Shown here piece after piece: positions 1 through 36,117 of a stretch of 64,000 nucleotides of DNA. Each line of letters opens with the position of its first letter. The first letter of the stretch is position 1. Source of the DNA: Alphaproteobacteria bacterium (GTDB lineage Bacteria > Pseudomonadota > Alphaproteobacteria > RF32 > CAG-239); assembly GCA_017528205.1 (NCBI GenBank), contig JAFXPE010000032.1, forward strand, positions 145,986 through 209,985, in the 5' to 3' direction. The position numbers and the translations under genes were made by a program. The notes beneath the pieces were generated by a model. It was not told the origin of the DNA, searched no databases, and saw only the letters and a program-made list of their open reading frames with translations.

Positions 1-1100
1 CGGTAGAAATTAACTGCCACGGCTCAAAGGCTGTAATTCGTAGTATTATCAATAGCTTAAGTACACTAACGAACTTTCGCACCGCCGAGCCGGGTGAATA
101 TTCCAAACGCGCATTTTATAACGGCAAAATGGACTTAACTGCGGCTGACGGCTTGGCAGATTTGATTGATGCCGAAACCTCGATGCAGCAAAAAACAGCG
201 TTACGCCAAATGGGTGGAACACTGCTCACGCTGTATGATTCGTGGCGTGAACAGCTTGTTTCTTTGTTGGCTTATGTTGAGGCCTACATTGATTTTCCGG
301 ACGAGGATATCCCGCAAGACACTGTTTTTAAAATCGAAAACAGCGTTTTTAAAATTGCTGAAGAAATTTCGCGGCATATCAACGATAATAAAATTGAAGA
401 ACGTTTGCGCGACGGCTTCAATGTGGTTATTTCCGGACCGGTTAATGCCGGCAAGTCCAGTCTGATTAACGCCATTGTCAACCGTAATGTGGCGATTGTT
501 TCCGATATTGCCGGCACAACTCGCGATGTTATAGATGCTTATGTCGATATTAATGGTTTTCCGGTAATTTTTTCCGATACGGCCGGTTTGCGTGAAACTG
601 AAGACAGTATCGAACTTTTGGGCATAAATCTGGCACGAGAAAAAATCGCCGCGGCCGACTTTAATATTTTTATTTTTGATGCTTCAACCACTTCACCGGA
701 AATTTTTGACAGTCGTTTGACGGCTGAAAAAAACAGTTTGCTGGTGGCTAATAAAGCCGATAAAATATCCGAGGCGCAAAAGGCGGAGTTGATAAATAAG
801 GGATGTGTCCTGATTTCGGCCAAAAACAATGAGAATGTCAGCCAAATAACCGACGCTTTGTATAAATATTTCAGCGAATTATTCGCCGACAGCTCAAGCC
901 ATTTAATTACACGGCATCGCTACAAAGAAGCCTTAAATGAGTGCCTCGATAACCTCAAACGCTTTAATTTGCAAAAAGAGATTGAATTGGCTGCCGAAGA
1001 TATCCGTTTGGCGGCACGAGCAATCGGTAAAATCACCGGCAGAGTTGAAGTTGAGGAAATTCTGGATAAGATTTTCAGTAGTTTTTGTATTGGAAAATAA
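1..1100 (+). CDS. mnmE: tRNA modification GTPase MnmE (TrmE), 5'-truncated by window edge
   Basis: ORF 129..1100 contains a G-domain (VVISGPVNAGKSSLINAIV, DTAGLRE, NKAD) and the C-terminal CIGK motif typical of MnmE. About 120 N-terminal residues expected from family length are missing upstream of the window. Confidence 0.9.
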   Translation, partial: VEINCHGSKAVIRSIINSLSTLTNFRTAEPGEYSKRAFYNGKMDLTAADGLADLIDAETSMQQKTALRQMGGTLLTLYDSWREQLVSLLAYVEAYIDFPDEDIPQDTVFKIENSVFKIAEEISRHINDNKIEERLRDGFNVVISGPVNAGKSSLINAIVNRNVAIVSDIAGTTRDVIDAYVDINGFPVIFSDTAGLRETEDSIELLGINLAREKIAAADFNIFIFDASTTSPEIFDSRLTAEKNSLLVANKADKISEAQKAELINKGCVLISAKNNENVSQITDALYKYFSELFADSSSHLITRHRYKEALNECLDNLKRFNLQKEIELAAEDIRLAARAIGKITGRVEVEEILDKIFSSFCIGK

Positions 1101-1114
1101 CACTGTATTTAAAT
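1099..1114 (+). repeat. oriented 15-17 bp motif copy 1 (AACACTGTATTTAAAT), intergenic mnmE-mnmG
   Basis: Matches recurrent motif RAACAGTGTATTTAAAA; see findings. Confidence 0.5.
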
Positions 1115-1181
1115 AAATTGAATCAATTTTTTAACATCGTCGGCTAAGATTCTGAATCGACTCATTAAATTTTTTCGCTCT

Positions 1182-1198
1182 GAACAGTGTATTTAAAT
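1182..1198 (+). repeat. oriented motif copy 2 (GAACAGTGTATTTAAAT), intergenic mnmE-mnmG
   Basis: Same motif, same orientation, 83 bp from copy 1. Confidence 0.5.
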
Positions 1199-1270
1199 GT
1201 TTTAGGTTAGCTTTTTAATTGCATTTTACTTTAAGTTGTGGTTTATTGTCTGCAAACAAAAGAGGCTTAT

Positions 1271-3118
1271 ATGATACAGAAAACGGATGTAATAGTGGTC
1301 GGCGGCGGTCATGCCGGATGCGAGGCGGCCGCGGCGGCTGCGCGAATGGGCGCGCACACGGTTTTGGTAACCCATAAAATTGATAAAATCGGCGAAATGT
1401 CGTGCAATCCGGCCATCGGCGGTTTGGGAAAAGGCCATCTGGTGCGTGAAATCGATGCGCTGGACGGATTGATGGCGCGGGTTATTGATAAAGCCGGCAT
1501 ACAATTCAGAATGCTCAATCTTTCCAAAGGTCCGGCCGTAAGAGGGCCGCGTGCACAGGCCGACCGCGATTTGTATCGTAAATATATGTTGGAGGCGCTG
1601 TCGAAAACGCCCGATTTAACCATCAAAGAAGCCGCGGTTGAGGGCTTGCTTTTGGATAATAACGTTATCAGCGGAGTGATTTTGGCTGATGGCACGGAAC
1701 TTTATGCTTCGGCGGTGGTGCTGACAACCGGAACTTTTTTGAACGGCATAATGTTTACCGGTCACGTTACCAGTGAAGGCGGACGTGTCGGCGATGAGGC
1801 TTGCAAAGGAATTACCCCGTATCTTAAACAAGTGGGGCTGACGTTGGGGCGCCTGAAAACCGGAACTCCGGCTAGGTTGAACGGCGATACAATCAACTGG
1901 GATATTTTAGAGCGCCAGGCCGGAGATGAATATCCGCAACCGTTTTCGTTTTTAACCCAAGAAATTGAAAATCCGCAAATCGAATGCGGAATTAGCTATA
2001 CAAATGAATCAACACATAAAATTATTCGCGAAAACTTTTCAAAATGCGCACTTTTTTCCGGTTTGATTACCGGCCGCGGGCCGCGTTATTGCCCGAGTAT
2101 TGAAGATAAATTGGTGCGTTTTGCCGACCGTACTTCACATCAAATCTTTTTGGAGCCGGAAGGATATAACACCAACGTGGTTTATCCGAACGGAATTTCT
2201 ACCTCGTTGCCGGCCGATGTGCAAGATGCGTTTATCCATACCATGAAAGGGTTGGAAGATGTGGAAATTTTGCGCTATGCTTATGCCATAGAATACGATT
2301 ATGTTGATCCGCGCGAGTTGGACCATTGTTTGGCGGTTAAAAAAGTAAAAGGACTTTATTTGGCCGGACAAATCAACGGTACCACCGGATATGAAGAAGC
2401 GGCGGCGCAAGGTTTGGTAGCCGGTGTTAATGCCGCGTTGTTTGCTCAAGGTGAGGGCAGGGAGTTTTACATTGACCGTAGTCAAGGCTATATCGGCGTG
2501 ATGATTGATGATTTGATTACCAAAGGCATCGACGAGCCGTATCGTATGTTTACTTCGCGCTCGGAATATCGTCTGTTGTTGCGTGCCGACAATGCGGATA
2601 TGCGCCTAACCGAGCTGGGACACGAAATCGGCTGTGTCAGCGCCGACAGATACAGTGTATTTAAACGCAAACAGGCCGCAATAGCCGATTTTGATGAATA
2701 TTGTCGCCATAAAATCGTACCGTTTGCAGAGATTGAAAAACAGGGCTTGAGTGTTAAACACAACGGCAAAAAATGTTTAAAAGATGTGATGAGTTATCCG
2801 AATGTTTCACGTGAAACAATGCTGAAAATAGACTCTAAAATCAATGAGGTAGATTCGCAAATTTATGAACAGGTTGAGATTGATGCTAAGTATTCCGGCT
2901 ATTTAAAGCGCGAGTACGAGGATATTGCCGTGTTTAAAAAAGACGAGAATCTTAAAATTCGTGATGACATAGATTATGCTAAAATCGGCGGTCTTTCTAC
3001 TGAAATGGTGCAGCGCTTTTCAACCGTCAGACCGAAAACCATCGGTGAGGCCTCGCGCATAACCGGAGTGACACCGGCGGCGGTAACCGCTTTATTGGGG
3101 TATATTAAAAATGCTTAA
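1271..3118 (+). CDS. mnmG: tRNA uridine 5-carboxymethylaminomethyl modification enzyme MnmG (GidA)
   Basis: FAD-binding N-terminus [14 protein letters not shown] and full-length GidA-like ORF. Start set at ATG 1271 preceded by an AAGAGG SD; ORF track starts at 1238. Confidence 0.95.
2650..2666 (+). repeat. oriented motif copy 3 (ATACAGTGTATTTAAAC) inside mnmG
   Basis: Motif match within coding sequence. Confidence 0.5.
2803..2818. promoter_or_regulatory. parS centromere site TGTTTCACGTGAAACA inside mnmG
   Basis: Perfect 16-bp palindromic consensus parS. Encodes NVSRET, the classic location of parS within gidA. Confidence 0.85.
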
Positions 3119-3956
3119 AATTCAGCCGTATTCATATCATAACCATACAGTTTTTTCCGATGGTCATAATACGTTGGAGGAAATGGTGGCGGCAGCCAAA
3201 AAAATCGGCTTTACCGAAATGGGTGTCAGCGACCACTTGATTGTGCATAAAAATATGAAGCGCGACGTAAGTTGGCCGATGTTACGCGGTTGTGATGCGC
3301 CGCACGTATATAACGATGATTTTAAATCCATTCTTGATGCTTATAAATATCATTGCGAACATATCCGCCGCGTCGCCCGAAAAGAAAATTTTAAATTGTA
3401 TGTCGGGTTTGAGGTTGACTATTTTCCTTATGACGGTTGGTTGGAAGAATTTAAGTGGTTTGTTTCGCAACTTGATTATGATTATCTGCAAACCGGCAAC
3501 CACTTTTTTTGTGAAGAAAATTGCACCGACATAATTAATATGACTTTCTTCAAAAAAGTTTGTCCGGACACTTCTTTATATAAGGAATATGTCCGCCGCC
3601 ATTTTGAGGTTATGCGTCAGGCGGTAGAAACCGGAATGTTTAAATTTTTGGCACATATTGATTATGTGCGCAAATACGGTCCCGAAGTCTATGATATTGA
3701 TGACTTTGCGGCGGAAAAAGATAGAATTATCGATGCCTTGTTGCGTACCGGTACGGCGATGGAAATTAGCACCAAAGGATTGCGTAAAATCGGAGATTTT
3801 TATCCGGACGACAAACTTATAACCAAAGCGGCCGACAAGGGTGTAACTTTTATAGTCAGCGACGATGCCCATAAAACAGAAGAACTTGGTGCCGACTTTG
3901 ACAAGGCGGAAGCCGTGTTGGCTAAACACCATATCACAAAAATTTTGAAATTTTAG
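3111..3956 (+). CDS. PHP-domain phosphoesterase (histidinol-phosphatase family)
   Basis: N-terminal [11 protein letters not shown] ... GVSDHL metal-binding motifs typical of the PHP/HisJ family. Confidence 0.7.
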
Positions 3957-4028
3957 ATTGTAGTTAATAACCGTTATATTTTGTTGCAAAATAAAAAGAA
4001 TCTTTCATACTATCCTCAAGAGGAAAAT

Positions 4029-4655
4029 ATGAATATAGAAAATGAATTACAACAATATAATGTTTCACGTGAAACATTGCAAAAATTGCAAGATTTTGTT
4101 GCGTTGCTGCAAGAATGGAATGCCAAAATGAATTTAGTCAGCAAAAAGTCGCTGGAAGATGTTTGGCAACGGCACGTTTTAGATTCTATACAACTTGTGA
4201 AATATTTGCCGCAAAATCCGCGGTGTTTGGTCGATATCGGTAGTGGCGCCGGATTTCCGGGAATCGTACTGGCTATCGTCTTACAAGAGAAGTTTCCGGA
4301 AGCTAAAGTGATTTTAGTGGAAAGCATTACTAAAAAAACGGTGTATTTAAAAGATGTGTGCACTAAATTAGGTTTAACTAACACCACGGTTGAAAATAGC
4401 CGAATCGAAAATATTTCCATTAAAAATGTTGATGTAATTACCGCTCGTGCCGTGGCCGCGTTGGATATGCTGTGTTTGTATGCTTTTGATTTGGCAACAA
4501 AAAATACACGTATGCTGTTTTTGAAAGGGCGTTCATACACTGATGAGGTTACAGCTGCCGAGCAAAAGTGGAAATTTAATCTTCAGGTATATCCGAATTT
4601 ATACAGTTCGGATGGTGTTGTTTTGGAATTAAGCAATTTAAGGAAAATCAAATGA
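4029..4655 (+). CDS. rsmG: 16S rRNA (guanine527-N7)-methyltransferase RsmG (GidB)
   Basis: VDIGSGAGFPGIVLAI SAM-binding motif and gidA-gidB-parAB synteny. Start chosen at ATG 4029; the ORF track start 3981 is upstream. Confidence 0.9.
   Translation: MNIENELQQYNVSRETLQKLQDFVALLQEWNAKMNLVSKKSLEDVWQRHVLDSIQLVKYLPQNPRCLVDIGSGAGFPGIVLAIVLQEKFPEAKVILVESITKKTVYLKDVCTKLGLTNTTVENSRIENISIKNVDVITARAVAALDMLCLYAFDLATKNTRMLFLKGRSYTDEVTAAEQKWKFNLQVYPNLYSSDGVVLELSNLRKIK
4061..4076. promoter_or_regulatory. parS centromere site TGTTTCACGTGAAACA inside rsmG
   Basis: Second perfect parS, again encoding NVSRET near the N-terminus of GidB. Confidence 0.85.
4336..4353 (+). repeat. oriented motif copy 4 (AAACGGTGTATTTAAAAG) inside rsmG
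   Basis: Motif match; read in a different codon frame (TVYLK) from the copies that encode SVFK. Confidence 0.5.
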
Positions 4656-5419
4656 AAATAATTTCAATTGCCAACCGTAAAGGGGGCGTGGGCAAAACCA
4701 CCACAACCATAAACATTGCAACTGCTTTGTCGGCAATCAATAAAAAAGTTTTGGTTATCGACTTTGATCCGCAGGGCAATGCGACAACCTCGTTGGGAAT
4801 TGCCAAGAAAAAGGGACAATTTTCATCTTATAACGTGCTGACACAGAGTTGCTCGGTTGCGGAGGCTATTATCCATACGGATATGCCGCGCTTTGACCTT
4901 ATCCCGTCATCGCCGGATTTGGCGGCAGCCGAAGTCGAACTGGTTAACTTGGAAAACCGCGAATTTGTGTTGAAAAATGCCTTAAGTCGGTTGGATAATC
5001 TGTATGATTATATTCTGATAGATTGTCCGCCATCGCTTAATTTGATAACCATCAACGCCTTGGTCAGCTCCAATTCGGTGATTGTGCCGTTGCAATGCGA
5101 ATTTTTGGCCCTAGAGGGCTTGGCCGATTTGATAAAAAATATCAATGCCATCAAGCGTAACTTTAATTCGGCATTGGCTTTACAAGGAATTATCCTGACT
5201 ATGTTCAGTAAGCAAAATAACTTAAGTAAGTTGATTGAGGCCGATGTGCGTAAATATTTCGGTGATAAGGTATACAGAACCGTAATTCCGAGATGTGTGC
5301 GCATTGCCGAAGCTCCATCCTTCGGCAAGCCGATACTGGTGTACGATTTTAAGAGTACCGGAGCACAGGCATATATTGAATTGGCGAAAGAATTTTTAAA
5401 ACGAGAAAAGGAGATGTAA
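4652..5419 (+). CDS. parA: chromosome partitioning ATPase ParA
   Basis: Deviant Walker A KGGVGKTTT, ParA-family length, directly upstream of parB. Confidence 0.9.
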   Translation: MKIISIANRKGGVGKTTTTINIATALSAINKKVLVIDFDPQGNATTSLGIAKKKGQFSSYNVLTQSCSVAEAIIHTDMPRFDLIPSSPDLAAAEVELVNLENREFVLKNALSRLDNLYDYILIDCPPSLNLITINALVSSNSVIVPLQCEFLALEGLADLIKNINAIKRNFNSALALQGIILTMFSKQNNLSKLIEADVRKYFGDKVYRTVIPRCVRIAEAPSFGKPILVYDFKSTGAQAYIELAKEFLKREKEM

Positions 5420-6307
5420 ATGAACGCTATTAACAAAATGGGCCGCGGATTAGAGGCTTTGTTAGGTGATGACGAACTTAATCTTGATGACGTGAAAGAT
5501 GTGGAAAATTTTGTAAATAACACTGTATTTAAAACTGAAAACAGTAACGAGGTTAAGGTTACGGATATTCGCCCTTGTGCTTTTCAGCCGCGAACCAATT
5601 TTGACGGCGAGGCTTTGCAGTCGCTGTGCGATTCCATTAAAGAAAAGGGAATTTTACAACCGCTTTTGGTGCGTTCCAAGAACGGTAAATACGAATTGAT
5701 TGCCGGCGAACGCCGTTGGCGGGCTGCGCAAATGGCCGGCTTGGAGAGAGTGCCGGTAATCATTAAAGAATTGTCAGACCAAGAAACTCTGGAAATTGCC
5801 TTAATTGAAAATTTGCAGCGCGAAAATCTGTCGGCCATCGAAGAAGCCGAAGGCTTGAATCGCCTGATGCATGAATATGAATACACGCAAGATGTTTTGG
5901 GTAAGGTTATCGGCAAGTCACGCAGTTACATTGCCAACAGCCTGCGTTTGCTAAGCTTGCCGGAAGAAGTGCGACGTATGATTGCGGAAAATAAGTTATC
6001 TGCCGGACATGCCAGAGCGTTGGTTGGATTGCCGAATGCCGTAGAATTGGCAAAGCGAATTATTGCTAAAGGTTTGAGTGTACGTCAAACCGAACAGTTA
6101 ATTGCTGATTTGAAAAACAAAAAAACACGCAAATTGGCCGAAAAAATTATGGATGCCGACCTGAACAAAATTATTGCTGATCTAGAACAAAAATTGCAGC
6201 TTAAAGTCAAAATAAATGCTGGTCAAAACGGAAAAGGTAGTGTAACATTAAAATACAATAATCCGGCGGAACTTAGTTCTATTCTGGATATTTTGGAACA
6301 ACGCTAA
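5420..6307 (+). CDS. parB: chromosome partitioning protein ParB
   Basis: ParB box GERRWRAA and HTH region; follows parA with one stop-start junction. Confidence 0.9.
   Translation: MNAINKMGRGLEALLGDDELNLDDVKDVENFVNNTVFKTENSNEVKVTDIRPCAFQPRTNFDGEALQSLCDSIKEKGILQPLLVRSKNGKYELIAGERRWRAAQMAGLERVPVIIKELSDQETLEIALIENLQRENLSAIEEAEGLNRLMHEYEYTQDVLGKVIGKSRSYIANSLRLLSLPEEVRRMIAENKLSAGHARALVGLPNAVELAKRIIAKGLSVRQTEQLIADLKNKKTRKLAEKIMDADLNKIIADLEQKLQLKVKINAGQNGKGSVTLKYNNPAELSSILDILEQR
5519..5535 (+). repeat. oriented motif copy 5 (AACACTGTATTTAAAAC) inside parB N-terminal region
   Basis: 27-nt stretch ACACTGTATTTAAAACTGAAAACAGTA is about 24/27 identical to mnmE 318..344. Confidence 0.5.
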
Positions 6308-6326
6308 AAACAAACTGGAGACTAAA

Positions 6327-6572
6327 ATGCCAACCATATTAGAGATGATGCTAGAAAATTGCAAAAAAGCCGGTTATTACCCGACACAAAACATAGAAAA
6401 AATCGCTCGCGCCAAAAACATGATGTTCGGTGAGGGCGAATGGCGCCGTTGTCCGTGTGACGGTCAAAATGAAGAAAGATATTGTATTTCCGAGCTTTGT
6501 CGCAGCGATATCGAACGCGACGGAATTTGTCATTGTCGTTGCTATCAAAAAGCAAGTCCGGACAGCAAATAA
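6327..6572 (+). CDS. ferredoxin-thioredoxin reductase catalytic-subunit-like Cys-rich protein
   Basis: CPC ... C..C ... CHC cysteine arrangement (WRRCPCDGQ ... YCISELC ... GICHCRCY) resembles the FTR catalytic-chain signature; 81 aa. Confidence 0.55.
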   Translation: MPTILEMMLENCKKAGYYPTQNIEKIARAKNMMFGEGEWRRCPCDGQNEERYCISELCRSDIERDGICHCRCYQKASPDSK

Positions 6573-6597
6573 TTTTCGTTGAGGCCAAACGGGATAA

Positions 6598-9500
6598 ATG
6601 CGCAATCCGAAATTTATAAATTTGCGAGTGCACACCGCCTATTCTTTGTCTTTAGGCGCTATTCCGGTTCCGACTTTGGCACATAAGCTACACGATTTGA
6701 ATGTGCCGGCCTGTGCCATAACCGACCGCGGTAATCTGTTTGGCGGCAAGGCCTTTTCCAAATATGCCTCCGACGAGGGAATTAAGCCGATTCTCGGCTC
6801 GGAATTATGCTTGCACAATGACGATTCGGAAAATTTATCCATTTCCAAGGGCGTGGAATTGGAGCCGAACCGCATCATTTTGCTGGTGCAAAACGAGCAG
6901 GGCTATAAGTCTCTGATGAAGCTCTTTCGGCGCTATTATATGGATAATATGGAAAACAGCATATATCCGCAGATAAATATGGAAGATTTACGCCGGTTTA
7001 ACGAAGGACTGATTTGCTTTACCGGCGGATATGACGGGCCGATCGGCAAATTGATTTTGCAAAATCGCAAAGAAGACGCCGAAAAAAAAGTTTTGGCCTT
7101 AAAGGAAATATTCGGCAATCGGTTGTATATGGAAATTTCGCGCGTCGGCTATGATGAGGAGCAGGCAACCGAGGGTGCGTTTTTGGAAATGGCTTTCAAA
7201 CATGATATTCCGCTGGTGGCTACCAATGATGTATTCTTTTTTAACGAAGAAATGTATGAGGCGCACGATGCGCTGATTTGTATTGCCGCCGGCGAATATG
7301 TGGCTGATGACACGCGGCGTAAATATCTGCCGACGAACCGTTGGCGTAGCGAAGATGAAATGTGTGAGCTGTTTTCCGATATTCCGGAAGCTGTTGAAAA
7401 TACGGTATTAATTGCCGAAAGATGTAACTTTTTATCTAAAAAAATCGACCCGCTGTTGCCGATATTCATTTGTCCGGACGGCAAAACTCAAGATGAATTC
7501 ATTACCGAAGAAGCCTACAAGGGTTTACACGAGCGTATGGTAGCGCAGGTTTACACCCCGCAAACCACTCCGGAGGAGCGGCTGGCCATAGACGAAGAAT
7601 ATTATGCGCGTTTGGAATATGAGCTCGGTGTAATAAAGAAAATGGGCTTTCCGGGCTATTTTCTTATCGTGTCCGATTTTATCCGCTGGTCGAAAACTCA
7701 CGGTGTGCCGATTGGTCCGGGGCGTGGTTCCGGTGCCGGATCGATAGTTGCCTGGGCGCTGAAAATTACCGACTTGGACCCGATACGTCTGGATTTGCTG
7801 TTTGAGCGTTTCTTAAATCCGGAACGTGTCAATATGCCGGATTTCGACGTTGATTTGTGTCAGGAAAATCGCCATAAAACCATTGAGTACGTGCAGGAGA
7901 AATACGGCTATGACAAGGTAGCGCAAATCATCACTTACGGCAAGTTGCAATCAAAGGCGGTGATTCGTGATGTGGCACGCGTTTTGCAAATGCCGTACAG
8001 TCAGGCTGACGCTATTTCTAAAATGATACCGGCCGGTTCCGGCGGTAAAAATCCGACCTTGCCGGAAGCGTTGGAACAGGTGGCCGAGCTTCGCGAAATG
8101 CGTGATAAAGATCCTCAGGTAAATAAATTGTTTGAAATTGCCATTCAGCTGGAAGGCTTATACCGCAACTCCGGAATGCACGCCGCCGGTGTGGTTATCG
8201 GCGACCGTCCTCTTGACGAGCTGGTGCCGCTGTATAAAGATCCGCGAGCGGATATGCCGGTTACCCAATACGATATGAAGTTTGTAGAAGAAACCGGCCT
8301 GATTAAGTTCGACTTTTTGGGCTTGAAAACTTTAACCGTTATCAAGCGCGCGGTAGATTGGGTGCAAAAAGTTCACGGCATAGAGCTGAATATGGCGGAA
8401 GTTCCTTTGGATGACGAGCCGACATATAAATTGATGCAAGAGGGCAATACCGGTGCGGTATTCCAATTTGAATCGTCCGGTATGCGCGACGTGATGAAAC
8501 AAATTAAGCCGGACCGCTTTGAAGACCTAATCGCTATCATCGCACTTTATCGTCCGGGGCCGATGGATAATATTCCGACCTTTATCAATCGCAAGCACGG
8601 GCGTGAAGAAATAAAGTATGAGCACCCCGATTTGGCGCCGATATTGAATGAAACTTACGGTATTATGGTTTATCAAGAGCAAGTAATGAAAATTGCTCAA
8701 GTGCTGGGCGGATATACGCTCGGGCAGGCCGATAAACTGCGTAAGGTTATGGGTAAAAAATTGCGCGATGAAATTCCGCACCAACGCGAAATGTTCGTCA
8801 ACGGCGCCCTCAAAAACGGCATTGCCGAAGACACGGCCAAAACTATTTTTGACCAAATGGAAAAATTTGCTTCGTACGGATTTAACAAATCGCACGCCGC
8901 CGCATACTCGCTGATTTCGTACCAAACAGCGTATTTAAAAGCGCATTATCCGGTGGAATTTATGTGCGCGGTGATGGATTTTGATATTATCAACACCGAC
9001 AAAATCGCGCTTTATACCGACGAAGTGCACAAAATGGGCTTTAAAGTTTTGCCGCCGGATATTAATTATTCCAACGCACTTTTCAAGGTCGAAAACGGCA
9101 ACATTCGTTTTGCCTTGTCCGGGGTTAAGGGCGTGGGCGAAGCCAATATGAACGCGATTGTTGAAGAACGTGAAAAGAACGGTGTATTTAAAAGCCTTTC
9201 GGACTTTATTCATCGGGTTGACATTAAACAAATAAATCGCCGTCAGCTTGAACAGTTGATAAAATCCGGTGCATTTGATTGTTTGGATAAAAATCGTGCC
9301 AAATTATATGCCAACATAGACAGTATTTTGCGCCATATTGCCGCTGATTGCGAAATGAAAAACAGTGCGCAAACTTCGCTGTTTGGAACACAGGAATTGA
9401 GCGCGGACATTAAGTTGGACGGTAAGGCCAGCTGGGCCGATTTGGAACAGTTGCAATATGAAGCGGAAGCCATCGGCTTTTATTTATCGGCGCACCCGCT

Positions 9501-10068
9501 TGATGTTTATGCCGACAGCGTAGAGCGTTTGGGCATCAAAACTTTTAATGAGGCAATATCCGGGATGAAAGACGGTGATAAAATTCTGGCAAATTTGGCC
9601 GGTTGCGTACAATCCTTCAGCAAGCGTCAGGGCAAAAAGGGAATGTATGCCATATTGCGCGTATCAGACACAACATCAGCCTATGACGGTTTTGTGTTTG
9701 AGCGAGAATTACCGCAGGCACAGGCCGCAATTGCCGCCGGAGTACCGCTGTTTTTGCAAGCACGCATCGAAAAAAACGGAGATGACGCACCGCCGCGAAT
9801 TATTTTTAACACCGTGCGCACGCTTGATGAGGAAATCACGCAAAATTCCAAAGGTTTGATTATTGAAATTGCCGACGTTTCCGCGGTGCGCCCGATTAGA
9901 GAAATGCTCTCGCACGAACACTTCGGCCCGTATAAAATATATTTGAAACCGGATCTTGAAGATTGGAATGTCCGCATTCAACTTAAAAACAGTTATGCGT
10001 TGGATAACGGCCGCATAATGACCGATATTCGCGCCATTCCGGGAGTAACGTTGGTGAAGGAATTGTAA
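6598..10068 (+). CDS. dnaE: DNA polymerase III alpha subunit DnaE
   Basis: 1156 aa with a PHP N-terminus, the conserved YQTAYLKAHYP motif, and polymerase core motifs. Confidence 0.95.
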   Translation: MRNPKFINLRVHTAYSLSLGAIPVPTLAHKLHDLNVPACAITDRGNLFGGKAFSKYASDEGIKPILGSELCLHNDDSENLSISKGVELEPNRIILLVQNEQGYKSLMKLFRRYYMDNMENSIYPQINMEDLRRFNEGLICFTGGYDGPIGKLILQNRKEDAEKKVLALKEIFGNRLYMEISRVGYDEEQATEGAFLEMAFKHDIPLVATNDVFFFNEEMYEAHDALICIAAGEYVADDTRRKYLPTNRWRSEDEMCELFSDIPEAVENTVLIAERCNFLSKKIDPLLPIFICPDGKTQDEFITEEAYKGLHERMVAQVYTPQTTPEERLAIDEEYYARLEYELGVIKKMGFPGYFLIVSDFIRWSKTHGVPIGPGRGSGAGSIVAWALKITDLDPIRLDLLFERFLNPERVNMPDFDVDLCQENRHKTIEYVQEKYGYDKVAQIITYGKLQSKAVIRDVARVLQMPYSQADAISKMIPAGSGGKNPTLPEALEQVAELREMRDKDPQVNKLFEIAIQLEGLYRNSGMHAAGVVIGDRPLDELVPLYKDPRADMPVTQYDMKFVEETGLIKFDFLGLKTLTVIKRAVDWVQKVHGIELNMAEVPLDDEPTYKLMQEGNTGAVFQFESSGMRDVMKQIKPDRFEDLIAIIALYRPGPMDNIPTFINRKHGREEIKYEHPDLAPILNETYGIMVYQEQVMKIAQVLGGYTLGQADKLRKVMGKKLRDEIPHQREMFVNGALKNGIAEDTAKTIFDQMEKFASYGFNKSHAAAYSLISYQTAYLKAHYPVEFMCAVMDFDIINTDKIALYTDEVHKMGFKVLPPDINYSNALFKVENGNIRFALSGVKGVGEANMNAIVEEREKNGVFKSLSDFIHRVDIKQINRRQLEQLIKSGAFDCLDKNRAKLYANIDSILRHIAADCEMKNSAQTSLFGTQELSADIKLDGKASWADLEQLQYEAEAIGFYLSAHPLDVYADSVERLGIKTFNEAISGMKDGDKILANLAGCVQSFSKRQGKKGMYAILRVSDTTSAYDGFVFERELPQAQAAIAAGVPLFLQARIEKNGDDAPPRIIFNTVRTLDEEITQNSKGLIIEIADVSAVRPIREMLSHEHFGPYKIYLKPDLEDWNVRIQLKNSYALDNGRIMTDIRAIPGVTLVKEL
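8925..8940 (+). repeat. oriented motif copy 6 (AACAGCGTATTTAAAA) inside dnaE
   Basis: Motif match. Confidence 0.45.
9177..9194 (+). repeat. oriented motif copy 7 (GAACGGTGTATTTAAAAG) inside dnaE
   Basis: Motif match. Confidence 0.5.
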
Positions 10069-10069
10069 T

Positions 10070-11038
10070 ATGCAAAACGAGAATAAATACACTTTTTTCA
10101 GCGTAATCGGCACATGGATAAATTTGTTGCCGCAAGTTATCAAACAATGGGGCGCAATTTTAACCTATGGTGTTGCGGTAACCGCACTCAGCGCGGCTTT
10201 CGGACGCTGGTCTTTTTCCTGCCAAGAAGGCAACACCGGCCCGTGGTGTTATGTTCCGAGCAACAATTTTGCGGTTATTGTCGCCTTTTTGCTGACATTC
10301 TTTATTTTGATGTGTTTGATTGTGGCGTTTTTTGTGTATGATTTTCAGCAAAACGTGAATCAGAACAGTGTATTTAAACTCCGAGATGCTTGCAGAATAT
10401 CGAAGTCGAAAATGAAATCGGCTCTATTTGTTTTGGGGGTTATCGCCGGTTTTATTGTTCCGGTGCTGATTGCCATGGCCATAATCAACAAGCCGGCCAA
10501 TCCGGATTATCGCATTGAATTTTGCTATTTTACCGTAATGTTTTTAATGTTTCTGGTGCCGCTGCTGCAAATTCGCCTTTCTGCCGGAATTGCTTATTTT
10601 TTGAACAAAGGTTATATTCCGGTGCGCAAAATTTTTAACATCACCGTCGGACGAAGCTTTATTCCGTTGTTGCTGTTTTTGCTTTTGGTGATTTTGATGT
10701 TGAGCGTGCATATGCGCTCTCTGGGATACTTTAATTATCTGACCTTCCGCTACGAAGGCTTTGCGGTGGTGTTGTTGACGGATTTTGCGGATAACGTGTT
10801 GAAATTAGCGTGTTTAGCCTTGTTTTTGCTCTTCTTTCAGGCACAATATCTGACCATGGAAAAAATGTTGCCGGCGGAAGATGATAAAATTGCGGAGCCG
10901 GAAATTGAAATGCCGGCAAACGACGATGAAGTTAAACCGGCGAAAAGTGCTAAAGCCGCGAGCAAAAAGAAAAACAAGCGCAAAGCGCAAAACGCGTCCT
11001 CGGGCTCCAAATCAAAAAAAGGAAAAAAAGATGAATAA
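10070..11038 (+). CDS. polytopic membrane protein with Lys-rich C-terminal tail (hypothetical)
   Basis: Multiple hydrophobic helices and a C-terminal KSAKAASKKKNKRKAQNASSGSKSKKGKKDE tail. The 3' end overlaps the start of the next gene by 8 nt. Confidence 0.5.
   Translation: MQNENKYTFFSVIGTWINLLPQVIKQWGAILTYGVAVTALSAAFGRWSFSCQEGNTGPWCYVPSNNFAVIVAFLLTFFILMCLIVAFFVYDFQQNVNQNSVFKLRDACRISKSKMKSALFVLGVIAGFIVPVLIAMAIINKPANPDYRIEFCYFTVMFLMFLVPLLQIRLSAGIAYFLNKGYIPVRKIFNITVGRSFIPLLLFLLLVILMLSVHMRSLGYFNYLTFRYEGFAVVLLTDFADNVLKLACLALFLLFFQAQYLTMEKMLPAEDDKIAEPEIEMPANDDEVKPAKSAKAASKKKNKRKAQNASSGSKSKKGKKDE
10363..10379 (+). repeat. oriented motif copy 8 (GAACAGTGTATTTAAAC) inside the membrane protein gene
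   Basis: Motif match. Confidence 0.5.
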
Positions 11039-11753
11039 GCTGAAACAATATATAGCGTTGTTTTTATTGGTGCCGACGATTGCCTACGCGGCGCCAGACA
11101 GCGGTGAGGCTTGGCAAGCCGTGGCCGAGCGGGATGCCCAAAAGCTGACAACCCTCATAAAAGAGGGCGCAAATCCGAATGAGCGCAACGAAAATGGCGA
11201 TACTCTGCTTTATTATGCCGTAAAACACAAAGCTCCGGTGGAAATTTTGCGCATTTTGATTGAAAGTGGTGCCGATGTAAACGCTCCGTCGTCAGAAAGC
11301 GGAATGACACCGCTGGTTTATATGACGATGACCGCCGACAGAACGCAACGGATAATTTTGCAAAAACTGTCGCGCTATTCCGGCGAAGAAAAACAAAATA
11401 TTGCCGCCGGACTGAAAGCAAAAGCCGCAAAAAATATGCGTTATGCCGCCAAAGTCATCAGATTTTTGGTTGAAAACGGGGCAAATGTCAATCAACAAAC
11501 TCCGTTTGGAACGGCGCTGATGAACGCCGCCAAAAATCCGTGGAACGCTGAAATTATAGAGTTTTTGCTTAAATCCGGTGCCGACATAAATATATGTGAC
11601 CGCAACGGACGCAGCGCTTTGTTTTATGCCGTGGTCTTTGCCGATAACGAAACGGTAATGCAACTTTTGGCCGCGGATGCCGATCCGGAAATAAAAGACA
11701 TAAACGGCAAAACTTATCTGGAAATAGAAAAAGAAGATATGCTCAAATCGTAA
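11031..11753 (+). CDS. secreted ankyrin-repeat protein
   Basis: Signal peptide MNKLKQYIALFLLVPTIAYA followed by ankyrin-like repeats (GDTLLYYAVKHKA..GADVNA; GRSALFYAVVFADNETVMQLLAADADPE). Start placed at ATG 11031 rather than the ORF-track 10881. Confidence 0.75.
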   Translation: MNKLKQYIALFLLVPTIAYAAPDSGEAWQAVAERDAQKLTTLIKEGANPNERNENGDTLLYYAVKHKAPVEILRILIESGADVNAPSSESGMTPLVYMTMTADRTQRIILQKLSRYSGEEKQNIAAGLKAKAAKNMRYAAKVIRFLVENGANVNQQTPFGTALMNAAKNPWNAEIIEFLLKSGADINICDRNGRSALFYAVVFADNETVMQLLAADADPEIKDINGKTYLEIEKEDMLKS

Positions 11754-11881
11754 ATTATCCACGATATGTAAAATTTTACAAAAATATGATGAAAAGTTTG
11801 TTTTTCTGATTTAGTATACTCTAAACGGTCGGCAAGGGAGAAATTGCTCGGATCGGAGTTTAATTTTAATAAAAGGAAGAT

Positions 11882-14404
11882 ATGATGTTTAGCAAAGCAA
11901 AAATTTGTAAAGTTGCTATGGCAGCTTTGACTATACTATTTTCTGCCGTAAGCGTCGCATCGGCTTCGGAATTGGATTTGGTCATTCCGAACTTGGGTAG
12001 CGCCACTTACAGCATTTTCGGTCACGAAAGCATATTTGGTCAGCCGATTACGGGTAATTTCTTGTTGTTATGCGGAATGGGCATTTGTTTGCTGGGTATG
12101 ATTTTCGGTTTGTGGGAATTTTTAAGCATTAAAAGAATGCCGGCCCACAAAGCAATGTTACAGGTTTCGGAAACAATTTACGCCACCTGCACCACTTATA
12201 TGAAACAACAGGCTAAGTTGTTGTTTGTGTTAGAGCTGTTTATCGGCGGTTGCATTGTTTATTATTTTGCCGGCTTAAACGGTACTCCGTTGCCGCAAGT
12301 GGCCTATATTTTATTGTGGTCGCTTTTGGGTATTCTCGGCTCGTTTACAGTGGCTTGGTTCGGTATGCGAATTAACACCTACGCCAATTCCCGCACTTCT
12401 TTTGCTTCGCTGAAAGGTAACGCTTATCCGGTTATGCACTTACCGCTTCGTTCCGGAATGTCCATCGGCGTATTGCTGATTTGCGTTGAATTGATTATGA
12501 TGATGTTTATTTTGGTGTTTGTTCCGCGTGAAACTGCCGGCGCTTGCTTTATCGGTTTTGCCATCGGTGAATCGCTCGGTGCTTCGGCTTTGCGTATTTG
12601 CGGCGGTATTTTCACCAAAATTGCCGACATCGGCGCCGATTTGATGAAGATTATTTTCAAAATTGACGAAGACGATGCCCGCAACCCGGGAGTTATTGCC
12701 GATTGTACCGGTGATAACGCCGGCGATTCCTGCGGTCCGACGGCTGACGGTTTTGAAACTTACGGCGTTACCGGTGTGGCTTTAATCAGCTTTATTGTTT
12801 TGGCCGCCGGTTACTATTTCACTTCGGAAGGCGCTTTGGCCGCGGATATTCACGCGCCGGAATTGCAAGCGCGCCTGATTACTTGGATTTTCGTGATGAG
12901 AATTTTGATGATTATAACTTCAATATTCTCTTATGCCATCAACGGCTTTTTCTCCAAGCTGATTTACGGCAAGTCCAAGGAATTTGATTTTGAAAAGCCG
13001 CTGACCAGCCTGATTTGGATTACCTCTTTGATATCCATTGCCGTTACTTTTGCCGCATCTTACTTTATGTTGCCGCAAGCGAATTTCGGCCCGAATATTT
13101 GGTGGGAAATGTCGGTAATCATCAGCTGCGGAACTTTGGCTGCGGCGATTATTCCGGAATTTACCAAAATATTTACTTCGTCAAAATCCAAACACGTTCA
13201 GGAAGTGGTTAACGCCAGCCGTGAAGCCGGTGCTTCTTTGAACATTTTATCCGGTATTGTTTCCGGTAACTTCTCCGGTTTTTGGCAGGGTTTGGTAATT
13301 GCCGGTTTGATGGGCTTGGCTTATGCTACCGCTTCCGGCCACTTGGCAGATTTGATTTACGGCCTGCTCGGTTACGGCATGTCGGGTGATACCCACATCG
13401 GCGCCATTATGATTTATCCGACGGTATTTGCCTTTGGTTTGGTGGCGTTCGGAATGCTCGGTATGGGGCCGGTTACCATTGCCGTTGACAGCTACGGTCC
13501 GGTTACGGATAACGCGCAGTCGGTGTTTGAACTTTCGCAAATTGAAAGCCTTAAAGGCATCAAAAAAGAAATCAAGAGCGACTACGGTTTTGAGCCGGAT
13601 TTCGAACACGGCAAACATTTGCTCGAGGCTAACGATTCGGCCGGAAATACCTTTAAGGCCACTTCTAAACCGGTGTTAATCGGTACGGCGGTAATCGGTG
13701 CAACCACGATGATTTTCTCGATTATATTGTTGTTGCATCTGGAATTGAACTTAATTGATGCTCGCGTGTTAATCGGTCTGATTTTGGGCGGTGCGGTCAT
13801 TTATTGGTTCTCCGGTGCGGCAATTCAAGCCGTTTCTACCGGTGCTTATCGTGCCGTAAACTACATTAAGGAACACATTAAACTGGATACCAAAAAGGCG
13901 GCATCGGTTGAAGATTCCAAGACGGTGGTTAAAATTTGCACTCAATATGCACAAAGAGGAATGTTCAATATCTTTATCACCATTTTCTCGTTTGCCATTG
14001 CCTTTGCCTTTTTCGGACCGGAATTGTTCGCCAGCTACCTGATTTCTATTGCCGTATTCGGCTTATATCAGGCTCTGTATATGGCAAATGCCGGCGGTGC
14101 GTGGGATAATGCCAAAAAGGTAGTAGAAGTTGATTTGGAAGAAAAGGGCACTCCGTTGCATGACGCATCGGTAGTCGGCGATACGGTCGGCGATCCGTAT
14201 AAAGATACGGCGTCGGTGGCCTTGAACCCGATTATCAAATTCACCACTTTGTTCGGCCTGTTGGCGGCAGAAATGTCGGCCAAAGTGTCCGAAAAGAACC
14301 CGAATTTGGCCTTTGGAATTGCCTGTGCATTCTTGGCTATCGGTTTGGTGTTTGTATGGCGTTCTTTCTACGCTATGCGCATTGAGGCTAAAAAAATGGA
14401 TTAG
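11882..14404 (+). CDS. hppA: membrane-bound proton-translocating pyrophosphatase (H+-PPase) with N-terminal extension
   Basis: GDTVGDPYKDTASVALNPIIKF and DNAGD..GD motifs of H+-PPases. 840 aa, with about 130 extra N-terminal residues including a signal-peptide-like segment. Confidence 0.9.
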   Translation: MMFSKAKICKVAMAALTILFSAVSVASASELDLVIPNLGSATYSIFGHESIFGQPITGNFLLLCGMGICLLGMIFGLWEFLSIKRMPAHKAMLQVSETIYATCTTYMKQQAKLLFVLELFIGGCIVYYFAGLNGTPLPQVAYILLWSLLGILGSFTVAWFGMRINTYANSRTSFASLKGNAYPVMHLPLRSGMSIGVLLICVELIMMMFILVFVPRETAGACFIGFAIGESLGASALRICGGIFTKIADIGADLMKIIFKIDEDDARNPGVIADCTGDNAGDSCGPTADGFETYGVTGVALISFIVLAAGYYFTSEGALAADIHAPELQARLITWIFVMRILMIITSIFSYAINGFFSKLIYGKSKEFDFEKPLTSLIWITSLISIAVTFAASYFMLPQANFGPNIWWEMSVIISCGTLAAAIIPEFTKIFTSSKSKHVQEVVNASREAGASLNILSGIVSGNFSGFWQGLVIAGLMGLAYATASGHLADLIYGLLGYGMSGDTHIGAIMIYPTVFAFGLVAFGMLGMGPVTIAVDSYGPVTDNAQSVFELSQIESLKGIKKEIKSDYGFEPDFEHGKHLLEANDSAGNTFKATSKPVLIGTAVIGATTMIFSIILLLHLELNLIDARVLIGLILGGAVIYWFSGAAIQAVSTGAYRAVNYIKEHIKLDTKKAASVEDSKTVVKICTQYAQRGMFNIFITIFSFAIAFAFFGPELFASYLISIAVFGLYQALYMANAGGAWDNAKKVVEVDLEEKGTPLHDASVVGDTVGDPYKDTASVALNPIIKFTTLFGLLAAEMSAKVSEKNPNLAFGIACAFLAIGLVFVWRSFYAMRIEAKKMD

Positions 14405-15618: not shown

Positions 15619-17832
15619 TTAGCTCAAAGGAGCGTCCATTTCAAATCCGGCGCTGTCATCCTCTTCGGCGTTGTATTCAATGCCCAATTTGGCCAGCATA
15701 TCGTCATTAATATCTTCACGCTGTGCCACAATCCAATCCGGAACATTCGGGCAAGCAGGCAACTTCGCCAATTTGCTCATTCTTTTATCCAAATACCAAC
15801 GCGGAGAGTCGGCAATAATCGGGCGGTCGATATGGCTTTGCATCAACACCACTTGCTTTAACATCGGCAAACTCAACAGCTGTGTCGAGCTGATAACCGG
15901 AATGCCTTGCAACTGATAGTTAACGTTTTTCGCCAGCGGGTTAAAGTCTTTACCCAAGCTACCCTCTGTTCGTGAAAATGACGAAATACGCACGGTTTTG
16001 TTACCAATCATCTTAGAGAAACGTTGTGCCGTAACTTCGTTGTTTTGCGAAAGAATAACTTTGCAGGCGGTGGTAGAAATCACCGTTTCCAAATCATCTT
16101 TTCCGTATTTGCCGGAGATTTGGCCCAAGTCTTGTCCGATTAGCAAATAAGACACTTTTTGACCACGACCTACGGCCGGTCCGTCGATAATAGCTTTCAT
16201 CTTAGGCATTTGCGGAAACTCGTCGAGCACGAACAACGCAGGGAAAGGTCCCATTTTGCCGTCGGTACGGTTAACGTGATTCGGCGGATTGGAAATCAAA
16301 TAAGACGACATCAACTCAATAAAGGTAGAGCTGATAACGCCCAACGCACGCGCATCAACCTGGTTAACCGACAGATATACGGAAATCGGCTTCCATTCTC
16401 CGGTAACCGGATCTTTCATACCGCGCAAATCCTTAAACAACAAATCCGAAAAACTTGTCCGCGCTTTAACCGCTTGGTTCTTGAATACGTTAATGCCGGC
16501 AAATGCAGTAGAAAGAATGGAACCGCGCTCTTTATCCGGAGTGTTGCTCAAGGTGCTCAATTCCGTAATGCAACGCTGAGCATAACCATAATTACGGGCT
16601 TCCTTAATTGCTTCTTCAAGCATATCTTTAGTCGGGTCGGCCATGGCCGCCATCTGATCGCCTTCGTCCAAACGACGTTGAATTTCGTGAGCGGCGTTGA
16701 TTTGCGCCTCCGTAATCCATTCCATAATCATGGCAATGCAAGCCTCACGTCCCATCCAACGCGATGGCAGCAAATTCCACGTTCCGATAGGTAGATAATT
16801 TTCCATGGTCAGTGTGCCGTTTTTCAAATTTTGTAAAGCACGTTGAACTCCCGGATCACGCATATCCATATAATAACCTTCGAGAACTTCCTTATCTTTT
16901 TCATCAAGCTTGCCTTCATAAATGCGGCCGATAAAATAATCGTTGGCACGGGCACGCTCACATTTGGAAACCACAAATTGAATAAATCCGGTTAAGGCTG
17001 CACGACCGGTTTGTGACCAGTGCGGATCGGCGCCGCCTTTCGGATCTTCAACCAAAATGTTACACATGGAATCCACATACATATCGCGGTCCGGACCTTG
17101 TTCCGGAATACAGCTCGGCGACAGCGGGTTCCAACTCGGATAATAAATGCCTTCACTCGGATTATCTTCTGCACCCCAGTTAATGATAAACACCGGCCCC
17201 ACTTTGGCGCGAGCACCCGAAGTGTTATAACAAAGCTCCGGTTTCGGGTCGTTAATCACCAAACTGAGCTTGTCGGAATTGAAAATCGTCGGAATCACCA
17301 CGCCGGCGGTTTTACCGGTACCAGGAGGTGCGCAGCACAGCGTGGCCAAGGTTTCTTTTAACATTAAAAATTTGCCGTCAAACTTGCCGACAACCTGGCA
17401 GAAACCGTCAAAACCCAACAGCGACATTTTCTTAATGTCGCGCAAATCGGCAATTTTGGCCTGACCTTGATAGTTAACCTGAAACTTATACGGACTGAAA
17501 ATGGCGCTGACAATCAAACCGAGCGGAATGGTAATAAACGGCAACAGCGGAATCCACAAACTGAGCGAAAACCCGCCTTGGTGATTCCACAGCTGATGTC
17601 CCCATTTTCCATACATGGTAAACAAGTGATTAGGATCTCTGGCAATAAGCGCCAAAAACTTCTGAATGACATCGGTTGAGGACTTAGAAACGCCGTGTCC
17701 CACCAAATAAGAAAGCGGTAGGGCGAAAATAAATAAAATTATGCTTAACACAAGGCAAATCAAGAAAGTTACCGTCATCCACCTGACGGCTTTGTCATAT
17801 TCTTTCCATTCTTCACCGCGATCGTTTGCCAT
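15619..17832 (-). CDS. type IV secretion/conjugation coupling ATPase, VirD4/TraG/DotL family
   Basis: Two N-terminal TM helices, Walker A LCCAPPGTGKTAGVVIPT, Walker B ALFVLDEFPQMP, conserved IGQDLGQI..GK region, acidic C-terminal tail; 737 aa. Confidence 0.8.
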   Translation of the reverse strand: MANDRGEEWKEYDKAVRWMTVTFLICLVLSIILFIFALPLSYLVGHGVSKSSTDVIQKFLALIARDPNHLFTMYGKWGHQLWNHQGGFSLSLWIPLLPFITIPLGLIVSAIFSPYKFQVNYQGQAKIADLRDIKKMSLLGFDGFCQVVGKFDGKFLMLKETLATLCCAPPGTGKTAGVVIPTIFNSDKLSLVINDPKPELCYNTSGARAKVGPVFIINWGAEDNPSEGIYYPSWNPLSPSCIPEQGPDRDMYVDSMCNILVEDPKGGADPHWSQTGRAALTGFIQFVVSKCERARANDYFIGRIYEGKLDEKDKEVLEGYYMDMRDPGVQRALQNLKNGTLTMENYLPIGTWNLLPSRWMGREACIAMIMEWITEAQINAAHEIQRRLDEGDQMAAMADPTKDMLEEAIKEARNYGYAQRCITELSTLSNTPDKERGSILSTAFAGINVFKNQAVKARTSFSDLLFKDLRGMKDPVTGEWKPISVYLSVNQVDARALGVISSTFIELMSSYLISNPPNHVNRTDGKMGPFPALFVLDEFPQMPKMKAIIDGPAVGRGQKVSYLLIGQDLGQISGKYGKDDLETVISTTACKVILSQNNEVTAQRFSKMIGNKTVRISSFSRTEGSLGKDFNPLAKNVNYQLQGIPVISSTQLLSLPMLKQVVLMQSHIDRPIIADSPRWYLDKRMSKLAKLPACPNVPDWIVAQREDINDDMLAKLGIEYNAEEDDSAGFEMDAPLS

Positions 17833-17847
17833 TTTTTCCTCTGTTTA

Positions 17848-33845: not shown

Positions 33846-36117
<2,272 letters not shown>

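Follow-up and report, generated by a model that had tools for sequence, protein, structure and literature searches.

A dense, one-way array of a 15-base motif around parS in a clade of gut alphaproteobacteria: candidate docking sites in the chromosomal centromere zone

In the prevailing view, parS sites and ParB alone define the bacterial centromere. To our knowledge, extra cis-acting sites (ram, ricS and the RefZ motifs) occur in a few Firmicutes only, where they are scattered over hundreds of kb. The present work concerns a 64,000-nucleotide stretch of the alphaproteobacterial contig JAFXPE010000032.1 (hereafter the window). In its first 10 kb or so, among the genes mnmE, mnmG, rsmG, parA, parB and dnaE, a 15-base word, AAC-R-N-Y-GTATTTAAA, i.e., AAC-R-N-Y-GT(A/T)TTTAAA, occurs ten times (318-10378) and always on the + strand. 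Arrays of specific sites close to an origin or centromere are a known kind of element, whereas this motif, the clade that carries it, its density and its strict polarity are new. Searches of the literature with the core sequence returned only primers and unrelated matches, and no description of the motif was found in the literature searched on parS-accessory arrays or on RF32 genomes.

In S. aureus, nine non-palindromic 18-bp ricS sites around oriC recruit RicO, which anchors the region to the membrane (bioRxiv 10.64898/2026.03.06.710092). Both arrays consist of several copies of a specific, non-palindromic sequence of 15-18 bp in the origin or centromere region near parS. The nine ricS sites, however, are spread over ~700 kb, whereas the ten sites described here occupy 10 kb and are interleaved with parS; the sequences are unrelated and the phylum is different. 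Strict co-orientation and embedding in coding frames characterize the present array and are not known for ricS. The ram element is a GC-rich inverted repeat, specific to sporulation, with about 25 sites over hundreds of kb. In B. subtilis, these sites form a centromere-like array near the origin, distinct from parS, which serves polar tethering by RacA (PMC4914108). The array of the window is likewise made of specific sites near the centromere and separate from parS, but its motif is AT-rich, asymmetric, co-oriented and dense. The operators of KorA and TrbA are palindromic and located at promoters. On plasmid RK2, KorA (at its operator OA) and TrbA lock the ParB-family clamp KorB (PMC11790492, PMC13584720). 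This provides a working model in which a second sequence-specific protein near the loading site captures a sliding CTP clamp; that system is plasmidic, whereas the present array is chromosomal, and an interaction with ParB at the motif is only conjectural. Compared with the ram, ricS and KorA-type models, the array is ~70 times denser, besides being interleaved with parS, coding and co-oriented.

With the parS/ParB centromere itself, the array shares its location, a comparable conservation inside coding DNA and the presence of several copies per locus. parS is a 16-bp palindrome close to TGTTNCACGTGAAACA. Unlike it, the motif is asymmetric and of unrelated sequence (its best ungapped match to TGTTTCAC or GTGAAACA is 4/8, and identity with parS or half-parS was rejected), and genuine parS sites exist apart from it, at 2803 and 4061. 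Co-oriented repeats of 10-22 bp, to which one protein binds head-to-tail, are also known from plasmids, such as parC of R1, sopC of F and the Rep iterons. These repeats are contiguous or phased in 100-500 bp of non-coding DNA, whereas here the copies lie 21 bp to 3.4 kb apart and eight of ten are coding, and a plasmid-type direct-repeat centromere or iteron array was likewise rejected. Finally, KOPS (FtsK), Chi (RecBCD/AddAB) and Ter (Tus/RTP) sites resemble the motif in a polarity that is set relative to the chromosome rather than to genes. KOPS and Chi are words of 5-8 bases distributed genome-wide, with a strand bias that changes sides at ori and dif, and Ter sites, asymmetric sequences of about 20 bp to which a contrahelicase binds so as to stop forks arriving from one side, form two opposed groups at the terminus, unlike a 15-base motif confined to a single 10-kb centromere patch; a KOPS or Chi type of word was rejected on length and distribution.

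The exact 11-mer GTGTATTTAAA occurs five times in the window (1187, 2655, 4341, 9182 and 10368, all +), against an expectation of 0.08 per 64 kb, and a count of five was reached in 0/100 shuffles; the shorter core GTATTTAAA occurs eight times. When up to three mismatches to a 17-mer were allowed, ten matches were obtained at 317-10379 (+) and one weak match at 41098, with 1.0 expected. A position matrix was derived from 65 sites of other species only and used to scan both strands. It picks exactly the ten sites given below, at 21.7-27.2 bits, and its runner-up scores 12.3 bits (3312, + strand, within the array), the best scores of shuffled sequences having a mean of 12.1 and a maximum of 19.2 bits. 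The top minus-strand score in the window is 8 bits, and no complementary sequence is present there. With 9.4 bits at 35562 and 7.7 bits at 41098, the two weak matches do not exceed the level of shuffled sequences and are noise. In the other 54 kb of the window, the matrix scan found no copy on either strand, and the motif is also absent from the 4.5 kb upstream (polA and two unannotated genes), which were read from the 298-kb metagenomic contig that carries the window. A DNA uptake sequence (DUS/USS), expected at ~1 per kb genome-wide, was rejected on this distribution in the window and on ~100 kb of relatives' flanks. The ten copies are as follows.

318..332, + strand: copy 1 (GACACTGTTTTTAAA), within mnmE (D-T-V-F-K); with copy 2 it makes up a 21-bp tandem doublet, of which it is the first half; 21.7 bits; orthologues in L085, L086, L088, L005 and L006.
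339..353, + strand: copy 2 (AACAGCGTTTTTAAA) in mnmE, read as N-S-V-F-K; 22.5 bits; its orthologue reaches the distant lineage L170-L173 as well.
1099..1113, + strand: copy 3 (AACACTGTATTTAAA), overlapping and directly trailing the mnmE stop codon; 25.9 bits; kept in L085, L086 and L170-L173.
1183..1197, + strand: copy 4 (AACAGTGTATTTAAA), intergenic, 84 bp past copy 3, with the mnmG ATG (1271) following after 74 bp; 24.2 bits; the pair of copies 3 and 4, 83-84 bp apart, is also found in L085, L086 and L005.
2651..2665, + strand: copy 5 (TACAGTGTATTTAAA), within mnmG (Y-S-V-F-K), with a parS 152 bp further on; 22.0 bits; at identical mnmG codons in 9/11 species, with unrelated residues there in outgroups.
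4337..4351, + strand: copy 6 (AACGGTGTATTTAAA) in rsmG, in the second frame, T-V-Y-L-K; 26.0 bits; kept in six species, weaker in L007.
5519..5533, + strand: copy 7 (AACACTGTATTTAAA), within parB, in its variable N-terminal portion (N-T-V-F-K); 27.2 bits.
8925..8939, + strand: copy 8 (AACAGCGTATTTAAA) in dnaE, read as T-A-Y-L-K; 22.6 bits; kept in L085 and L088, with weaker forms in L086 and L005.
9178..9192, + strand: copy 9 (AACGGTGTATTTAAA) in dnaE, read as N-G-V-F-K, 253 bp past copy 8; 24.6 bits; kept in L085 and L086.
10364..10378, + strand: copy 10 (AACAGTGTATTTAAA) in the gene of a 322-aa membrane protein, read as N-S-V-F-K; right end of the array; 23.7 bits; kept in L085 and L086.

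Eight of these copies lie deep within coding sequence, and two reading frames are used. N/D-S/T-V-F-K is read in mnmE (two sites), mnmG, parB, dnaE at 9178 (N-G-V-F-K) and the membrane protein gene, and T-V/A-Y-L-K in rsmG and in dnaE at 8925. A logo of 83 sites, (A)AAC-R-N-Y-GTATTTAAA, holds ~22 bits across 15 bases, with C2, G6 and the TTTAAA block essentially invariant. Its information ends at ~17 bp, neither flank nor structure is conserved, and variation takes the form of transitions (A/G at position 3, T/C at position 5). The motif is asymmetric, and its three central positions R-N-Y show no covariation.

An initial annotation of the window had placed ten copies on one strand, and all are present, on the + strand and within 1 base of its coordinates. 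Its count of 6-8 occurrences of the 11-mer in 10 kb was overstated, and the two mnmE copies that it called degenerate are genuine members of the set. The palindrome ACASTGT that it proposed for the left part is only partial, given the lack of covariation in the centre, and the similarity of ~27 nt that it had seen between parB and mnmE is real and stems from the 21-bp tandem doublet. It was right that no sites lie past 10.4 kb in the window, although the weak match at 35562 that it excepted is noise. The two reading-frame classes, and a conservation that resides in the DNA, are as it had described them.

Spacings between neighbouring sites of 21, 31, 73, 84, 85, 116, 179 and 253 bp are near multiples of 10.5 bp, while spacings of 19, 29 and 56 bp do not fit. 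Such pairs are found at 318/339, 1099/1183 and 8925/9178 in the window, at 8897/8970 in L088, at 8831/8916 in L005 and at 11156/11335/11451 in L170; in L005, two intergenic copies and one parS are spaced 84 and 82 bp. A spacing of this kind would set copies on one helix face, which is suggestive, but the observation is post hoc, concerns ~12 independent pairs and is not used as evidence.

A ParB search of the Genome Taxonomy Database (GTDB) yielded at least three genomes of the same clade and at least 77 loci of other lineages. The three (L005-L007) are metagenome-assembled genomes (MAGs) from rumen, from roe-deer jejunum and from human gut, the last labelled 'Rickettsiales' UMGS1453. Exact-protein look-ups added eight further clade loci, and further members bear names such as 'Acetobacter sp.' MAG; judging from the MAG names, the clade is probably GTDB order RF32 (CAG-type gut alphaproteobacteria). 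The comparison covered eleven related species in two deep lineages, with ParB 52-100% identical to the query and a GC content of 29-44%. Every species has 5-11 sites scoring at least 18 bits, and of these sites 89 lie on the parB strand vs 0 on the opposite strand. The arrays measure 4.9-12 kb, start midway through mnmE and end 1.5-5 kb past parB, and each encloses two or three parS sites. At least 20 site positions are non-orthologous, yet they share one common strand. As to the check on orthologues proposed by the initial annotation, the mnmG copy occupies the same codons in 9/11 species, and motif, strand and location are kept even where ParB is only 52% identical.

Metagenomes of gut, rumen and other animal-associated origin are rich in ParB homologues. 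The matches listed by a metagenome scan with the ParB alignment were distant ParB loci (at most 48% identity), none of them from the clade, and were used as controls. All 157 parB loci scanned from other lineages (1.93 Mb) lacked the motif (0 matches); a scan of viral contigs gave nothing beyond single chance matches, and ~100 kb of relatives' flanks outside the arrays hold essentially no sites. The motif belongs to a single clade of uncultured alphaproteobacteria from gut and rumen and, within it, is restricted to the parS neighbourhood.

Conservation of the sites was examined in an alignment of the 11.5-kb locus from four species, whose columns agree fully in 54.5% of cases. In an unbiased ranking of runs without any mismatch, the parS sites of rsmG (17 bp) and mnmG (16 bp) come first, and the parB copy of the motif takes the third rank (15 bp, tied in length with one other run), forming an island of identity amid variable parB flanks. 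In codon alignments, the protein segments that bear the motif are variable, and they are unrelated in outgroup alphaproteobacteria; within the clade, the peptide is fixed as N-S/T-V-F-K in frame 0 or as T-x-Y-L-K in the other open frame. Selection on the motif acts on DNA, not on protein. Individual sites turn over. Both positions of the 21-bp mnmE doublet are present in the window lineage, only the first in L005/L006 and only the second in L170-L173; the doublet is intact in mnmE and decayed in parB, and the parB copy is confined to the window lineage. In rsmG of L005 (~8900-8930), a four-codon insertion relative to all other species, D-K-N-T (GATAAAAACACT), yields an extra perfect copy, apparently a site gained by insertion. 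Number, place and strand are kept despite this turnover, a pattern that indicates a functional cis-array, under purifying selection at the DNA level and positive selection for site gain. A third-codon-position test (0.83 vs 0.60, p = 3.5e-9) is circular, its columns having been picked for the motif, and is not used as evidence.

The parS sites of the locus are the following.

2803..2818, palindromic: perfect parS (TGTTTCACGTGAAACA) inside mnmG.
4061..4076, palindromic: perfect parS (TGTTTCACGTGAAACA) inside rsmG.
4508-4523 of L001, 73 bp before window position 1: third parS, with one mismatch, in mnmE; perfect or near-perfect in L085, L086 and L088.

Enclosing two perfect parS sites, with a third just outside the window, the array blankets the chromosomal centromere. 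Separately, a degenerate parS-like site with two mismatches, TGTTCCGCGTGAAACT, is found at 12520-12535 of the window, in the pyrophosphatase gene.

The initial annotation had regarded the region as the usual neighbourhood of oriC, which the data do not bear out for the window. Neither the window nor the 4.5 kb before it contains a DnaA-box cluster, and the DNA examined from the window lineage has at most four loose boxes per 500 bp. The motif itself agrees with the DnaA box (TTATCCACA) at only 5-6 of 9 positions, and the matching G is not conserved. In the distant lineage, a spacer of ~500 bp between the divergent genes coaE and rho, 2.5 kb upstream of mnmE, contains 6-8 DnaA-box-like 9-mers in all four species and, on this pattern, is probably their oriC.

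L170 650-1150, L171 650-1150, L172 900-1400, L173 700-1200: coaE-rho spacer, putative oriC.

All motif copies of L170-L173 face away from this putative oriC, co-directionally with the fork. The window lineage has no counterpart of the spacer, and the array tracks parS rather than any recognizable origin.

Two frames free of stop codons are available to the motif in either orientation (direct reading), so its polarity is not explained by coding. A further indication comes from L007 and L170-L173, in which a convergent minus-strand gene for the CCA-adding enzyme (PF01743) directly follows parB. Two or three conserved copies lie in the 3' part of this gene on the parB strand, that is, antisense to it, and terminator-like hairpins stand between parB and these copies. 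The arrangement argues for a polarity that is chromosomal rather than transcript-linked, read-through past the hairpins being possible.

The reading preferred here, to which a probability of about 0.5 is assigned, is that the array offers, in the centromere zone, sites at which one sequence-specific protein docks on double-stranded DNA. The zone so decorated would consist of the parS cluster and of the ~10 kb in which ParB is expected to accumulate. The end of information at ~17 bp fits a single protein footprint and, because the sites are asymmetric, the putative binder would probably act as a monomer or head-to-tail. As in anchoring arrays, whose motif is bound by a dedicated protein with a membrane or pole anchor, many copies of one motif surround parS in each species. 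A protein placed at ~1 site per kb, always in the same direction, would supplement the partition complex with a second layer peculiar to the lineage. Such a protein could tether the centromere region to a cellular landmark or orient it there, as RacA does at ram and RicO at ricS; it might instead retain ParB-CTP clamps or set limits to them, in the way KorA acts on KorB. Co-orientation would permit head-to-tail or parallel cooperative assembly between sites.

Several observations weigh against docking sites of this kind. No candidate binding protein for the motif was found among the genes of the locus. Moreover, no unannotated gene is common to the loci of both lineages, the neighbours of this type being different, and Pfam and NCBIfam searches of unannotated neighbour genes returned no DNA-binding domain. 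Orientation is uniform on both sides of parS, where a function linked to the outward sliding of ParB predicts mirror orientation. The M3 peptidase gene of L005 and a 445-aa gene of L170-L173, minus-strand genes inserted between mnmE and mnmG and totalling ~3.2 kb, carry no copy, which is mildly unexpected for a pure DNA element at ~1 site per kb. Finally, the survey comprised 69 kb of this genome and ~20 kb per relative, and clusters elsewhere are possible. Of the binding-site array suggested by the initial annotation for an origin-region protein, the part that stands is a DNA-selected cis-array at mnmEG-rsmG-parAB-parS, whereas a candidate binder and, for this organism, a link to oriC were not found.

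The significance of the array goes beyond the single genome. A whole clade, common in human and ruminant metagenomes, keeps in the zone of ParB a second dense, one-way array, strong enough to dictate amino acids of MnmE, MnmG, RsmG, ParB and DnaE. The array points to a centromere-associated factor together with its exact recognition sequence, by means of which the factor can be sought through DNA-affinity capture, DNA affinity purification sequencing (DAP-seq) and phylogenetic profiling. Current models of ParB and SMC do not account for the strict polarity, which could reveal how the partition complex is oriented or anchored, or how sisters are distinguished.

This polarity is the main argument for a different explanation, namely that the motif is a polar signal for a machine moving in one direction or a strand-specific mark. 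The signal could take the form of a Ter-like fork-pausing array, of a sequence that orients a translocase, or of recognition on one strand, either in the single-stranded lagging-strand template or through methylation by a non-palindromic methyltransferase, in which case sister centromeres would differ after replication. A directional reader predicts the very uniformity observed, 89 vs 0 across and between parS sites; the sites of L170-L173 point away from the probable oriC, and asymmetry together with polarity is a property that the motif shares with Tus-Ter and RTP-Ter sites. Against it stand the length and confinement of the motif (15 bases in a single 10-kb patch, vs 5-8 bases genome-wide for KOPS and Chi), the location of Ter sites in two opposed groups at termini, and the retention of the array in the window lineage despite the lack of an oriC signature nearby. 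No Tus-like or RTP-like protein and no methyltransferase could be linked to the motif. A polar signal is on balance unlikely; nevertheless, as co-orientation is not predicted by a function symmetric about parS, a directional reading stays alive, and with it the polarity signal that the initial annotation had offered as its alternative. A slim chance is given to a particular version, a strand-specific centromere mark, whose one-strand reader would mark one sister after fork passage. Because all copies face the same way, such a factor would decorate only one sister centromere. If true, the cell could tell its sisters apart or time their release, which would represent a new principle of bacterial segregation.

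Distinctly less credit is due to an element read during or after transcription, in the non-template strand or in mRNA. Examples would be an ops-like recruitment of a NusG paralogue or a target shared by mnmE, mnmG, rsmG, parB and dnaE for a small RNA (sRNA) or an RNA-binding protein. All sites of the window lineage do lie in or between + strand genes, the minus-strand genes inside the arrays (the peptidase of L005 and the 445-aa gene of L170-L173) are free of sites, and variation of the transition type is compatible with wobble pairing. This account is nevertheless opposed by the two or three antisense sites in the convergent CCA-enzyme gene of five species, past terminator-like hairpins. There is, in addition, no Rfam match in 1-12000, no conserved flank or structure and no complementary sequence in the window, and nothing at the RNA level would explain why the sites lie so tightly around parS.

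It is very doubtful that the sites are ordinary transcription-factor operators or internal promoters of the mnmE-mnmG-rsmG-parAB-dnaE genes. Two copies are indeed located in the mnmE-mnmG intergenic region, 74-160 bp before the start of mnmG, and the intergenic pair is kept in several species; the other eight, however, are deep in coding sequence, and ten co-oriented copies over 10 kb, with intragenic positions kept down to 52% ParB identity, would be abnormal for operators. The motif has no resemblance to sigma-70 promoters, and promoter-like matches are at chance level (28 vs 23 +/- 6 expected); the sole overlap with such a match, at the mnmE doublet, is an artefact of TTTAAA-N17-TAAAAT. Other regulatory boxes were also rejected. 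To the CtrA box (TTAA-N7-TTAA), the motif offers at best AAC-N7-TTAA, in which the seven 'spacer' bases are near-invariant (GTAT). By eye, the alphaproteobacterial LexA box (GAAC-N7-GAAC), IHF, the XerD arm of dif and the extended -10 leave invariant logo positions unmatched.

Secondary, non-canonical ParB sites, for instance half-parS sequences or accessory elements of the P1 box B type, would account for the co-localization with parS, and Pseudomonas ParB binds half-parS heptamers. They are highly improbable here, given an asymmetric motif without half-site similarity (4/8 at best) and a clade ParB of usual length and domains (PF02195, PF17762, PF23552).

Chance, composition or codon bias, a mobile repeat remnant (MITE, REP) or a common peptide, to which the AT-rich sequence and the frequency of AYLK and NGxFK (the two dnaE copies) as DnaE peptides might lend themselves, are excluded by the shuffles (none of 100 matching the counts), by the matrix with its 9-bit gap to the next score and by the control loci (0 in 1.93 Mb), as well as by dissimilar flanks, a single orientation, mostly intragenic positions and peptides that differ by frame and are missing in outgroups. 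The same holds for the uniform distribution and the common peptide that the initial annotation had named as deflating its proposal, within 69 kb of this genome and ~200 kb of relatives.

The genes of the locus, identified by NCBIfam and Pfam searches, all lie on the + strand.

To 1100, + strand: mnmE (partial).
1271-3118, + strand: mnmG.
3111-3956, + strand: PHP/HisJ-like phosphatase.
To 4655, + strand: rsmG.
4652-5419, + strand: parA.
5420-6307, + strand: parB.
6327-6572, + strand: 81-aa Cys-rich open reading frame (ORF) between parB and dnaE.
6598-10068, + strand: dnaE.
10070-11038, + strand: 322-aa multi-pass membrane protein, followed by an ankyrin protein and then an H+-pyrophosphatase, both +.

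The 81-aa ORF has the pattern CPC...C..C...CHC and no significant Pfam family; the arrangement of its cysteines is, in our estimation, reminiscent of ferredoxin-thioredoxin-reductase-like proteins. In L005 and L006 it is 85-89% identical, as compared with only 61-66% for ParB, a conservation far above that of its neighbours. The 322-aa membrane protein adjoins dnaE in a conserved manner only in the window lineage and ends in a lysine-rich tail, KPAKSAKAASKKKNKRKAQNASSGSKSKKGKKDE, which could, from its composition, bind DNA non-specifically.

Further along the window, a minus-strand block with negative GC skew (15619-23071) is led by a gene for a type IV coupling protein of the VirD4/TraG type, which is followed by four ORFs without a Pfam family. 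A coupling-protein gene lies similarly near the array in L088 and L089. At 33063-34988 (+), an orphan ParA/MinD-like ATPase (260 aa) is directly followed by a DnaJ-domain protein; the window thereby has a second gene of the ParA family, 28 kb away from parAB.

A de novo search of the control parB loci for enriched k-mers, aimed at similar arrays of other motifs, mostly recovered parS itself and compositional repeats. In a Verrucomicrobiota MAG (L014), the palindrome CTTGGCCAAG occurs nine times over 10 kb around parB (172-10215), in most cases as CGCTTGGCCAAGCG. A metagenome contig (L146) contains 9 + 5 copies of GTCGTCTGAA, which resembles an uptake sequence of the Neisseria type. In the gammaproteobacterium Litoribrevibacter euphylliae (L039), the 10-mer CGTCTACTTG occurs at 2882, 7873, 9089, 12517 and 14662, on one strand with 0 on the opposite, where 0.017 are expected across the 21-kb parB locus, and may be another polar or uptake-type word.

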